A stretch of 64,000 bases of DNA from Epsilonproteobacteria bacterium (ex Lamellibrachia satsuma) (GTDB lineage: Bacteria; Campylobacterota; Campylobacteria; Campylobacterales; Sulfurovaceae), in contig JQIX01000063.1 of NCBI GenBank assembly GCA_003934925.1, positions 2,030-66,029 on the forward strand, written 5' to 3'. Positions 32,881 through 41,403 of the stretch are shown here, in pieces. A program made the position numbers and the translations under genes. The stretch's first letter is position 1, and each line of letters begins with the position of its first letter. The notes below the pieces were generated by a model that worked only from the letters and a program-made list of their open reading frames with translations, was not told the origin of the DNA and searched no databases.

Positions 32881-32897
32881 TGGTTAAAATTTAATCA
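32881..32897. promoter_or_regulatory. N-box palindrome TGGTTAA-AAT-TTAATCA upstream of narK
   Basis: One mismatch to TGATTAA-N3-TTAATCA. Confidence 0.75.
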
Positions 32898-32991
32898 ATC
32901 TAGTATATTTGTTGAGCTTTTAACAATAATATATACTTTTTAAAGCCTGAAAACTATACGCCTTCATCATTGAGATTAAAAAAATACTAAA

Positions 32992-33008
32992 TGATTAATA
33001 ATTAATCA
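32992..33008. promoter_or_regulatory. N-box palindrome TGATTAA-TAA-TTAATCA upstream of nirA
   Basis: Perfect 7-3-7 inverted repeat. Confidence 0.8.
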
Positions 33009-33089
33009 ATAACATTATATATCTCTGACAAAACCAAGATACAATAAAAAACCAATTTAGCAGTGCAAACAAAAAGAGAGTGATAAAAT

Positions 33090-35009
33090 ATGACCATTTT
33101 AGAAAAAGCCTTAGAGGCAAGAAGCAAAAAAGTAAACAAAGTAGAAGCCACCAAAGCACAAAAAGCACCCATGGATGTCTATGCCAAACTTGAAGAAATT
33201 GCATCAGCAGGGTATGAGGGGTTGGCCAAAGAGGACAGTGCCTACTTTTTGAAATCTTTTGGACTTTTTGACAAAGGTGAAGATTTTATGCTAAGAGTGC
33301 GTGTGCCTGTAGGTCAATTGACAAACCAACAGGCACAGCGCATAGGAGAAGTAGCCCAAAGGTACGGTAATGACTACATCGATATTACTACACGTATGCA
33401 GATCGTACTGCGATACATTCAAATAGAAAACATCGCCAAAGTACTCAAGGATCTCAAAGAGGTAGGTCTTAGCACTTTTCAGACAGGCGTGGACAACACA
33501 CGGAACATTGTTTCAGACCCTCTTGATGGTCTGGCGTATGACAATGTCATTACCATCAAGGCCATCGTTAATAAAATAGAGCAGAGAATTATAGAAAACC
33601 CTGAGTGGATCTCTACACTTCCAAGAAAATTCAATACCGGAATACTCGGTTCACTTTCCAACTCTTGCAATATATTCGGTCATGACTGCTGTTTTGTACT
33701 TGCTCAAAAGGAGGGAGTATTCGGGTTTAATGTTTATCTAGGAGCCAGAGTAGGTGTGCAGGCAAAGGATGCCAACCTCTTTATCACCGCTGAGGAGGTA
33801 CCGGCATTTTATGAAGCACTTTTGGGGGTCTTTAAAAAATACGGCTACCGAGACAACCGAAACAAGAACCGTTTGCACTTTTTGCTTAGCGATGTAGGTA
33901 TAGAGCATTTTGTAGAAGCGGTTATGGAGGAAGGCGGTCTGAAGTATACTCCGGCAGGTGTAACGATGGTACAGTCACAGAATATTGCCCTTGGTTCCAA
34001 CAAGGTACTGCTGAAAGACGGTACGTTTGCCTACAAGATCATCGTACCTTCAGGGATCTTCAGCGGGTCTGATATGATGGCAGCAGCCAAAGCTTCTAAA
34101 AGTTACGGTGACGGGAACATCAGGCTGACCTATGACCAAAATCTCTACATCATCAATATTCCTACGGAAAATTTACCGGGATTAGAATCAAGTGAAATTG
34201 TCACAGACTATGCAAAGTTCAACAACCTTTACTTTAACGATATGATAGCCTGTGCAGGCACAAAAACATGTAGTTTCGGGGTCATCCCTAACAAAGCAGA
34301 TGCCATAGATATGGCGCATTTCCTCAGCTCAGAAGTAGCTATAGAAAATGCCAATGTACGTATGAACTGGTCTGCATGCCCTAAAGGTTGCGGGGTACAT
34401 GGTATCGCAGATATTGGTTTTGAAGGGTGCAAGGCTAAAGATGATGAAGGCAACCGTGTGGACGGTGTACACATTTTTGTTGGCGGAAAGATCACTCGTG
34501 TTGCAAAAGAGGCACATGTTTTACACAAAGCGCTTCCTATTACAGAAGCCAAACATCATGTGAAATATCTGTTAAAAACATATGCCGCACATAAGTTAAG
34601 AGCAGAAACATATGAAGCCTTTGATGACAGGTTATTAAGTGCAAACTACTCATTTCAAGCCCTTGGTTTCTTTACCAAGATCAATTATGTTTTAAATGAG
34701 AAGCTGGGTCTTGATATAGTGTTTGAACTGGACAAAGAGCCTAGAACCTATAAAAAAGAGGAGTTTGAACTCTTTGATTTCGGATTGAAGCTTTTTAAAC
34801 TTCTTACAAATGAAAAGCGTTATGATGCTGTAGAGAATTTTGAGCCCATCAAAGCACAACCCCGGAAAATCAAAAGAGATGAAGTCAGCAAACTTAATCC
34901 TAAAGTACCTGCAAAATTAAGCGAGATCATTTACAATATGACTCACCAGGATAAAAGAGAGAGAGCACAGGTATTTTCCGAACTGCTTGTTGCACTGAAA
35001 GAGGTTTAA
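33090..35009 (+). CDS. nirA: Ferredoxin-nitrite reductase (NirA-type) with C-terminal extension
   Basis: MLRVRVP, ITTRMQI, LPRKFN, ACAGTKTC...SACPKGC siroheme/4Fe-4S cysteines. Confidence 0.9.
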   Translation: MTILEKALEARSKKVNKVEATKAQKAPMDVYAKLEEIASAGYEGLAKEDSAYFLKSFGLFDKGEDFMLRVRVPVGQLTNQQAQRIGEVAQRYGNDYIDITTRMQIVLRYIQIENIAKVLKDLKEVGLSTFQTGVDNTRNIVSDPLDGLAYDNVITIKAIVNKIEQRIIENPEWISTLPRKFNTGILGSLSNSCNIFGHDCCFVLAQKEGVFGFNVYLGARVGVQAKDANLFITAEEVPAFYEALLGVFKKYGYRDNRNKNRLHFLLSDVGIEHFVEAVMEEGGLKYTPAGVTMVQSQNIALGSNKVLLKDGTFAYKIIVPSGIFSGSDMMAAAKASKSYGDGNIRLTYDQNLYIINIPTENLPGLESSEIVTDYAKFNNLYFNDMIACAGTKTCSFGVIPNKADAIDMAHFLSSEVAIENANVRMNWSACPKGCGVHGIADIGFEGCKAKDDEGNRVDGVHIFVGGKITRVAKEAHVLHKALPITEAKHHVKYLLKTYAAHKLRAETYEAFDDRLLSANYSFQALGFFTKINYVLNEKLGLDIVFELDKEPRTYKKEEFELFDFGLKLFKLLTNEKRYDAVENFEPIKAQPRKIKRDEVSKLNPKVPAKLSEIIYNMTHQDKRERAQVFSELLVALKEV

Positions 35010-35010
35010 A

Positions 35011-40865: not shown

Positions 40866-40968
40866 CTTCACTGCGCTAACGCTGAATTTGCTTCAACAGC
40901 AGGTTCACGCAACTAGTTGCTTGTATTAAATTTGTACACAATGATGTAATAATATAGAAGGGAACAAA

Positions 40969-41310
40969 ATGAAAAAAATTGAAGCGATCATCAAACCATT
41001 CAAACTGGAAGATGTAAAAGATGCATTGGTAGAAGCGGGGATCGAAGGTATGACCGTTTCTGAGGTCAAAGGTTACGGTAGACAGCAGGGACACTCCGAA
41101 CTTTACAGAGGTGCTGAGTATGTGGTGGAGTTTATTCCAAAGATCAAAATTGAGATCGTTGTGAGCAACGACGAGTATGCAGATATCGCGCTCAAAGCGA
41201 TCAACGGTGCAGCCAAAACCGGCAAGATCGGTGACGGTAAGATCTTTGTAAGTACGATCGACCATGCACTTCGTATCAGAACAGATGAAAAAGACGAAGA
41301 GGCACTGTAG
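40969..41310 (+). CDS. glnB: PII nitrogen regulatory protein
   Basis: [35 protein letters not shown]. Confidence 0.95.
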
Positions 41311-41318
41311 CAATATTT

Positions 41319-41345
41319 AGTGTTGAGCGTTCAGCGTTCAGCACT
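41319..41345 (+). repeat. Heptamer array AG TGTTGAG CGTTCAG CGTTCAG CACT
   Basis: Starts 8 bp after the PII stop. Confidence 0.85.
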
Positions 41346-41386
41346 TTCAAATAAAATATTAATATTTTTCTCCATTTTTTAGTTAT

Positions 41387-41403
41387 TGATCAAATTTTAA
41401 TCA
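41387..41403. promoter_or_regulatory. N-box palindrome TGATCAA-ATT-TTAATCA upstream of the second amt
   Basis: One mismatch to the consensus. Confidence 0.72.

Follow-up and report, generated by a model that had tools for sequence, protein, structure and literature searches.

What protein reads a palindrome that stands in front of one nitrogen-assimilation gene after another, and what does it do there? The question is raised by a stretch of 64,000 nucleotides (nt), here called the window, which comprises positions 2,030 to 66,029 of contig JQIX01000063.1 (assembly GCA_003934925.1) of Epsilonproteobacteria bacterium (ex Lamellibrachia satsuma), a member of the Sulfurovaceae. The genome is 2.0 Mb long, has a G+C content of 39.7% and is scored as 100% complete; crude calls of open reading frames cover about 90% of it. 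The palindrome, TGATTAA-N3-TTAATCA, is with good probability the operator of a nitrogen-assimilation regulon whose sites are located upstream of sigma-70-type promoters. Its most likely ligand is the product of an adjacent gene, a candidate regulator of 244 residues derived from NtrC.

Palindromes at nitrogen-assimilation promoters

A pattern search finds in the window the four copies that an earlier note on this DNA had listed, with the same mismatch counts (Table 1). The note had seen no other full copy between genes, and the sole further match in the window at up to two mismatches, at position 5678, lies within a gene. Nowhere else in the genome does a copy occur with fewer than two mismatches. 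All of them are intergenic, they span 8.5 kb, and each faces a nitrogen transcription unit: narK, nirA-nasA, amtB-glnK, or a second amt gene (amt2) with a P-II gene of its own. The gene assignments made earlier (a NarK-type transporter of the major facilitator superfamily (MFS), ferredoxin-nitrite reductase, assimilatory nitrate reductase, AmtB-GlnK, and a second Amt with P-II) hold. NarK is transcribed divergently from nirA-nasA, and the spacer between them contains two sites, one per promoter. These are separated by 111 base pairs (bp) in the window, by 77-79 bp in six relatives and by 24 bp in two others.

The relatives were collected by scanning species-representative genomes with the 244-residue protein as the query. 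The scan gave 62 loci in Sulfurovum and other Sulfurovaceae, 47-94% identical to the query, and one unrelated partial match. The gene order, consisting of a DUF234 gene on the opposite strand, the regulator, a PAS-domain partner, amtB, glnK, amt2 and glnK, is kept throughout. A site with at most one mismatch lies upstream of amtB in 38 of 44 relatives' loci, of amt2 in 27 of 36, of narK in 11 of 12 and of nirA in 11 of 13; the regulator gene itself is preceded by such a site in 28 of 59 loci. None was found upstream of eight control genes from the same loci, including glnK, the PAS gene, hemH and yceG. The flanking sequence diverges while the position of the site is kept, in dozens of genomes and several families, and in distant Sulfurovaceae variants such as TGCCTAAAAATTAATCA and TGCTTAATAAATAGGCA occupy the same position before amtB. 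Phylogenetic footprinting, which had been proposed as a check, has thus found the sites at orthologous promoters both in the 62 Sulfurovaceae loci and in several other families of Campylobacteria.

A weight matrix built from 112 sites and applied with a reporting cut-off of 12 bits gives 11 matches in the source genome. The informative ones among them are, in rank order, nirA, amtB, amt2, a porin-like gene and narK, with glnA lower. The porin-like gene (Gcw_chp family, G000:C36:25402) has its site 69 nt before the ATG, and in eight of nine copies from five genera the site lies 67-83 nt upstream. The glnA site reads TGATTACTTTTTAGGCA on the gene strand. It is located 71 nt before the ATG, has three mismatches and is followed after 31 nt by TATAAT; of 30 Sulfurovaceae genomes, 27 keep a weak variant, TGgTTAnTTTTTAggCA, at 65-74 nt from the start codon. 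The genome scan had been expected to give hits at glnA and gltBD. The first expectation is borne out, by a degenerate site, and the second is not: gltBD is absent from the matches.

Some weaker matches were examined and rejected. Those with two mismatches in the vicinity of MgsA and of a BamB-like gene seem to be chance occurrences. Another with two mismatches, next to the ribosome-binding site of glnA (G000:C19:94705), is not the conserved glnA site; it is misleading because a conserved A/T element precedes the glnA Shine-Dalgarno sequence. This element (aaaatttt, sometimes ending in TTAATCA) is found 10-30 nt before the ribosome-binding site in many Sulfurovaceae, and may serve in translation or represent a half-site.

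Promoter geometry and the sign of control

Site-anchored alignments of the relatives and the window place a -10 element 31-32 nt past the site at five promoters. The conserved form of this element in the relatives is TGnTAnnAT at amtB, (TG)TATACT or TATAAT at narK, cTATAAT at nirA, gCTATAAT at glnA and, after the proximal of two sites, gaTACACTaa at amt2. The distance from the site to the ATG is 66-72 nt, and 81 nt at the window's nirA. If the hexamer is taken as positions -12 to -7, the center of the dyad falls near -52, one helical turn upstream of the class II position and just upstream of a would-be -35 element.

The two sites at amt2 differ in quality. The distal one is the copy with a single mismatch, whereas the proximal one is degenerate; their centers are 53 bp, or five helical turns, apart. 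The usual distances to the -10 box and the start codon hold for the proximal site, not for the distal one. A strong distal and a weak proximal site at this distance would allow cooperative binding. Of the -10 boxes named in the earlier note, TACAAT at nirA (31 nt from the site) and TACTAT at amtB (32 nt, with an upstream TG) stand. TAGAAT at narK, 27 nt from the site, does not, as the relatives keep TATACT, and at amt2 the working promoter is tied instead to the proximal site and TACACT. Judged from the alignments, the TAGAAT boxes are probably not working -10 boxes at narK and amt2.

No match to the DNA-binding domain of sigma-54 (PF04552) was found in the genome, and neither sigma-54 nor a true enhancer-binding protein was found in it. 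The scan, the footprinting and the lack of sigma-54 support the original proposal of a nitrogen-regulon operator that acts on sigma-70 promoters. The fixed spacing between site and -10 box, across promoters and genera, suggests contact with the polymerase from one face of the helix, that is, activation. Activation is therefore the likely sign of control at the assimilation promoters. When fixed nitrogen is scarce, the bound protein would help RNA polymerase to start at narK, nirA-nasA, amtB-glnK, amt2-glnK, glnA and the porin-like gene.

At the regulator's own gene the palindrome overlaps or follows the -10 box. Of 59 loci, 42 have a 7-3-7 palindrome with TG...CA ends upstream of the regulator's start codon, at a distance of 14-36 nt. 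The window's variant, TGATGTTTTTTTCATCA, occupies the same place in five close relatives and differs by one base in another. This position is of the repressor type and suggests negative autoregulation, in which the protein, bound downstream of the -10 box, would repress its own synthesis. The same position lends some weight to the alternative that the bound protein chiefly represses the nitrogen genes and is released under nitrogen limitation. Campylobacteria promoters lack a strong -35 element, and a protein bound upstream of them could block an A/T-rich upstream element. However, the distance of 31-32 nt leaves the site at the five promoters wholly upstream of the polymerase core contacts, whereas repressors usually overlap the -35, the -10 or the start, and a spacing that is exact as to the face of the helix has been kept across genera. 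General repression is thus unlikely, and activation remains the preferred reading.

In 52 of the 62 Sulfurovaceae loci the DUF234 gene (window positions 37027-37830, minus strand) and the regulator gene are divergent. Where the regulator's own operator is a strong copy, the DUF234 gene lies about 100 nt from it; the gene may be co-regulated.

Table 1. Genes, operators and -10 boxes of the nitrogen locus (window positions)
Feature	Positions	Strand	Sequence	Remarks
narK-type nitrate/nitrite MFS transporter	31533-32813	-		MFS_1 match; TIGR00886 226 bits, under that model's cut-off
Probable narK -10 box	32843-32848	-	TATACT	32 nt from operator; spacing conserved in relatives
Operator, narK promoter	32881-32897		TGGTTAAAATTTAATCA	1 mismatch; 67 nt from narK ATG
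Operator, nirA-nasA promoter	32992-33008		TGATTAATAATTAATCA	Perfect; 81 nt to nirA ATG
nirA -10 box	33040-33045	+	TACAAT	31 nt from operator; same spacing in relatives (cTATAAT)
nirA (ferredoxin-nitrite reductase) and nasA/narB-type assimilatory nitrate reductase	33090-37011	+		
Probable -10 box of regulator gene	37966-37971	+	TACAAT	Read from sequence; relatives TATAAT or TATGAT
Degenerate symmetric site, probable auto-operator	37987-38003		TGATGTTTTTTTCATCA	15 nt after -10 box, 24 nt before ATG; absent from earlier note
Candidate regulator P0001	38028-38762	+		244 residues; minimal AAA+ fold and Fis/NtrC-type HTH_8
Partner, PAS and histidine-kinase catalytic-type fold	38743-39447	+		234 residues; follows regulator gene in 62 of 62 Sulfurovaceae loci
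Operator, amtB-glnK promoter	39445-39461		TGATTAAAAATTAATCA	Perfect; first three bases are stop codon of partner gene
amtB extended -10 box	39491-39499	+	TGtTACTAT	Hexamer TACTAT 39494-39499, 32 nt from operator
amtB and glnK (P-II)	39531-41310	+		
Distal operator, amt2 promoter	41387-41403		TGATCAAATTTTAATCA	1 mismatch
Proximal degenerate operator, amt2 promoter	41440-41456		TGTATATTTTTTAAACA	Consensus TGc.Ta.TTtt..A.CA in 22-23 relatives; absent from earlier note
amt2 -10 box	41488-41493	+	TACACT	31 nt from proximal operator; gaTACACTaa conserved in relatives
Second ammonium transporter (marine subtype) and second P-II gene	41523-43063	+		

The candidate binder and its partner

The C-terminal part of the 244-residue protein carries a helix-turn-helix (HTH) of the HTH_8 family (PF02954, 27.5 bits against a cut-off of 22). 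Residues 177-242 match Fis and Fis-like structures and form a four-helix DNA-binding end of the Fis type. The AlphaFold model has a predicted local distance difference test score (pLDDT) of 87.8. Its AAA+ domain is matched in Foldseek by ZraR, NtrX, PspF and NtrC1 with E-values of 1e-6 to 1e-5 and template modeling (TM) scores of about 0.5-0.56; RuvB is an equally good match. This domain is strongly shortened, to about 170 residues, and the protein starts 30 residues before Walker A. The alignment shows three conserved motifs, Walker A (G-x4-GK), RIIATAN and PSLKERPED. A Walker-B-like stretch follows Walker A after about 31 residues and precedes RIIATAN by about 14. The sigma-54 interaction domain with its GAFTGA loop (PF00158) gave no match at E-values up to 5, the stretches that contact sigma-54 are missing, and there is no Response_reg match that would indicate a receiver domain. 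Searches of Pfam, NCBIfam and the sequences of the Protein Data Bank saw only the HTH, and the AAA+ nature of the N-terminal domain is visible at the level of the fold alone. The names given to the protein in databases are generic ('helix-turn-helix domain-containing protein', 'Fis family'). It is likely, to judge from its genomic associations, that this protein binds the palindrome, and it would do so as a dimer by means of its Fis/NtrC-type HTH.

The association was followed in a wider sample of 301 Campylobacteria genomes, the families of which are coded f2-f14. The families that bear the regulator presumably include Sulfurimonas-, Sulfurospirillum- and Arcobacter-like ones. Of the 301 genomes, 80 encode a single homologue of the regulator each. 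Such homologues are absent or rare in two large families (1 of 90 and 0 of 124 genomes), which we take to be Helicobacter- and Campylobacter-like, are found in half of a third family (8 of 15), and are present in all the others. The regulator gene adjoins amt genes in six families, in several orientations and arrangements. Two f7 genomes and one f11 genome have perfect copies of the palindrome before amtB, amt2 and nirA/nasA, as well as before glnA (61-70 nt from the ATG), the gene for an NrtA-like binding protein and those for OprD-like porins. Perfect or near-perfect copies precede amt genes in f2 (in its single regulator-positive genome), f4, f8, f10, f11 and f13, and the amt site of f9 reads TGCTTAA-N3-TTAAGCA. 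By these comparisons the regulon is present in the Sulfurovaceae and in most other families of free-living Campylobacteria that were sampled.

Ammonium transporters are encoded in 121 of the 301 genomes. No TG-N13-CA palindrome precedes the amt/glnK operon in any of 18 Amt-positive genomes that lack the regulator (five of f6, six of f2 and seven of f3), whereas the only regulator-positive f2 genome carries TGCTTAAAAATTAATCA there. Within families f2 and f6, motif and regulator co-occur. Class-wide counts of the motif at one mismatch were discarded, being too noisy in the A/T-rich Campylobacter- and Helicobacter-like genomes. The DUF234 gene was rejected as the source of the binder: no homologue of it was found in the f11 genome G131, which has the regulator and perfect copies of the motif, and outside the Sulfurovaceae the gene is unlinked to the regulator.

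Operators of a second class, TGTATAA-N3-TTATACA, are located before amt genes and before the regulator gene in lineages with a recognition helix other than NRNTLRKK: NRITLRKK or NRVTLRKK in f6, and NRATLTKK in one genus of f8. In 11 genomes, one of which belongs to the Sulfurovaceae, the second class coincides with I or A as the third residue of this helix. The Sulfurovaceae genome G121 combines an NRITLRKK-type regulator with the class 2 site TGTATAAAAATTATACA at amtB and a hybrid site, TGTATAAAATTTAATCA, at glnA. Its regulator is 31% identical to that of the window and matches family f6 in the recognition helix, which suggests that regulator and operator were replaced by transfer or by rapid divergence.

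Several observations weigh against the assignment of the palindrome to this protein as a sigma-70 activator. A center near -52 corresponds to neither of the textbook activator positions, class I and class II, and the transcription starts were inferred solely from -10 boxes. The phyletic comparison would give the same result for the partner, or for any further gene that is inherited along with the regulator. Of another 20 genomes with the regulator, ten lack, at the amt locus that was fetched, any palindrome whose arms mismatch at one pair or fewer; several of these ten genomes have fused or operon-internal amt genes. Finally, TGATTAA is used by family f4 despite its NRVTLTKK helix, and a TGTACAA..TTATACA site occurs in one f12 genome whose helix is NRNTLRKK. 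These two exceptions rule out a clean recognition-helix code, and the helix residue alone is no code.

The same exceptions leave room for the alternative that the palindrome is a real operator bound by another factor encoded elsewhere, of the CRP/FNR, Fur or MerR type, while the NtrC-like protein does something else. The letters of the half-site loosely recall Fur boxes. The reference boxes are GTA-N8-TAC for NtcA, TTGAT-N4-ATCAA for FNR/CRP and TGATAAT-N-ATTATCA, a 7-1-7 arrangement, for Fur, and the consensus found here fits none of them in spacing and letters. HTH dimers of the NtrC type, on the other hand, read 17-bp 7-3-7 dyads, and this geometry, together with the TG...CA ends, is that of the palindrome. 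The co-occurrence in f2 and f6, the 18 genomes that lack both motif and regulator, and the palindrome upstream of the regulator gene, which is seen in both operator classes, also argue for the adjacent protein. A binder encoded elsewhere is quite unlikely.

The number of copies contributes little to the argument. At up to two mismatches the window contains five matches where 0.92 would be expected, and each of 100 shuffles gave fewer than five. Two exact copies exist in the genome, compared with none in each of ten first-order Markov simulations and with an estimate of about 0.04 from base composition. Four copies have at most one mismatch (simulated mean 1.6, maximum 4), and 18 have at most two, which is no enrichment over the simulated mean of 32.6. 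The raw copy number by itself is only modestly unusual. The palindrome is judged to be real because its four best copies are intergenic at nitrogen units and are conserved in relatives, not because of the count. The view that the copies arose by chance from A/T-rich sequence, or belong to a mobile or structural repeat without a regulatory role, would agree with the counts at one mismatch, where the simulation maximum equals the number observed, and at two, but is already contradicted by the exact copies, by the location of the best four and by positions conserved across families amid diverging flanks, and can be set aside.

The partner gene overlaps the regulator gene by 20 nt (its ATG is at 38743 and the regulator's stop codon at 38760-38762). 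In the model of its product (pLDDT 84.5) a PAS domain extends to about residue 95 and a catalytic-type domain starts at about residue 110; Foldseek matches include the catalytic domains of ZraS, RetS, PhoQ and NtrB. No helical segment that would correspond to a DHp/His domain lies between the two domains in the model. Phosphotransfer between partner and regulator looks impossible from these models, because the regulator has no receiver domain and the partner has no histidine domain. By analogy, the nitrogen signal is probably passed by direct protein contact, perhaps with the involvement of P-II: the translationally coupled PAS/kinase-fold partner would relay it to the regulator. It is the gene overlap and the constant adjacency that point to a direct contact modulated by P-II.

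A number of side observations concern the wider circuit. In the f11 genome G131, near-perfect copies of the palindrome also precede genes for an EAL-domain protein, a chemoreceptor and two solute-binding proteins, of the SBP_bac_3 and NMT1 types, which hints at a wider regulon there. Directly downstream of narK (window positions 29742-31379, minus strand) lies a gene for a fusion of a PP2C phosphatase and a Ser/Thr protein kinase, 545 residues long. This pairing recurs in relatives, and homologues of the fusion also adjoin nirA in one f7 genome and precede amtB in one f12 genome; the fusion may constitute a second, post-translational layer of nitrogen control. Fusion Amt proteins of about 750-770 residues, with no palindrome upstream of their genes, occur in f5, f14 and one genus of f7. 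Five f6 genomes of one genus, all without the regulator, have an element cgtccagcgctggag...aaggac in the amt2 leader, about 20-50 nt before the start. It forms a hairpin in which GUCC/GGAC pairing would cover the ribosome-binding site. An Rfam search with this conserved hairpin gave no match; it may be an RNA-level switch in place of the protein regulator.

Known systems and the meaning of the proposed regulon

Sites of enteric NtrC (NR-I) have the sequence TGCACCA-N3-TGGTGCA and are found at glnAp2 and other Ntr promoters. The operators described here are likewise 17-bp dyads of 7-3-7 geometry with TG...CA ends, and their variant TGCTTAA-N3-TTAAGCA belongs to the same pattern. The earlier note had remarked on this likeness in geometry and on the different sequence, and both remarks are correct. 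The difference is in the inner bases, with half-sites of TGATTAA here (TGTATAA for class 2 operators) and TGCACCA in the enteric sites. The two systems also have in common a nitrogen regulon (glnA, amtB-glnK, nitrate/nitrite assimilation), a likely binder with an NtrC/Fis-type HTH_8, tandem strong and weak sites, as at amt2, and a site at the regulator's own operon. Unlike the enteric sites, however, which are at least 100 bp upstream of -24/-12 promoters, these are about 52 bp upstream of sigma-70-type promoters. Furthermore, the genome has no sigma-54, and the protein has neither a receiver domain nor a GAFTGA region.

TyrR is counted among the derivatives of enhancer-binding proteins that lack the GAFTGA motif and act on sigma-70 promoters. 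Others are NtrX, VpsR of Vibrio and the NtrC proteins of Rhodobacter capsulatus and Caulobacter, the last two of which control nitrogen assimilation (PMC10274813). The candidate regulator resembles these activators in having an AAA+ fold without the loop that contacts sigma-54, a C-terminal HTH_8 and targets at sigma-70 promoters. The known activators keep a receiver domain (ACT/PAS in TyrR), and most of them need aspartyl phosphorylation by a kinase. The protein described here, in contrast, starts in a shortened AAA+ domain and has a partner without a histidine domain.

The arrangement of regulator and partner is similar to that of NifL-NifA with GlnK in Azotobacter and Klebsiella, where an AAA+/HTH protein is translationally coupled to a non-phosphorylating partner of the PAS and kinase-like (GHKL) type and P-II genes belong to the circuit. 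The differences are that NifA has a GAF domain and is fully a sigma-54 activator, that NifL retains an H-like domain, and that the target is nif, not general assimilation. In the present system the contact between the two proteins is inferred from this analogy.

The TnrA/GlnR boxes of Bacillus (TGTNA-N7-TNACA) are also 17-bp inverted repeats with TG...CA ends, located before glnA, amtB and nitrate/nitrite genes, and the second operator class superficially resembles them. The fifth base is T here and A in the Bacillus boxes, however, and TnrA and GlnR are MerR-type proteins of Firmicutes, unrelated to the candidate binder. A full-text literature search found no description of either the motif, which the earlier note had not recognized, or the regulator; we have found no previous description of this presumed nitrogen switch of environmental Campylobacteria.

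Apparently, an NtrC-descended nitrogen regulator and its operator have been rewired to sigma-70 and freed from phosphorylation. As to how this came about, we lean, with some reserve, to a scheme in which free-living Campylobacteria replaced NtrBC and sigma-54 with a phosphorylation-free descendant pair. The AAA+/HTH activator would act from about -52, its partner, possibly with P-II, would switch it by contact, and the operator would have diversified, along with the recognition helix, into two or more specificity classes. If this is true, an enhancer-binding system has been cut down to a sigma-70 activator without a phosphorelay, while the ancestral operator geometry was retained.

Sulfurovum, and probably Sulfurimonas and its kin, dominate primary production at hydrothermal vents and in sulfidic sediments and caves. 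For these bacteria the predicted regulon comprises the uptake and reduction of nitrate and nitrite, two ammonium transporters with their P-II proteins, glutamine synthetase and outer-membrane channels, and it comes with a named candidate regulator. The motif permits the prediction of nitrogen-responsive genes from metagenome-assembled genomes of the group.

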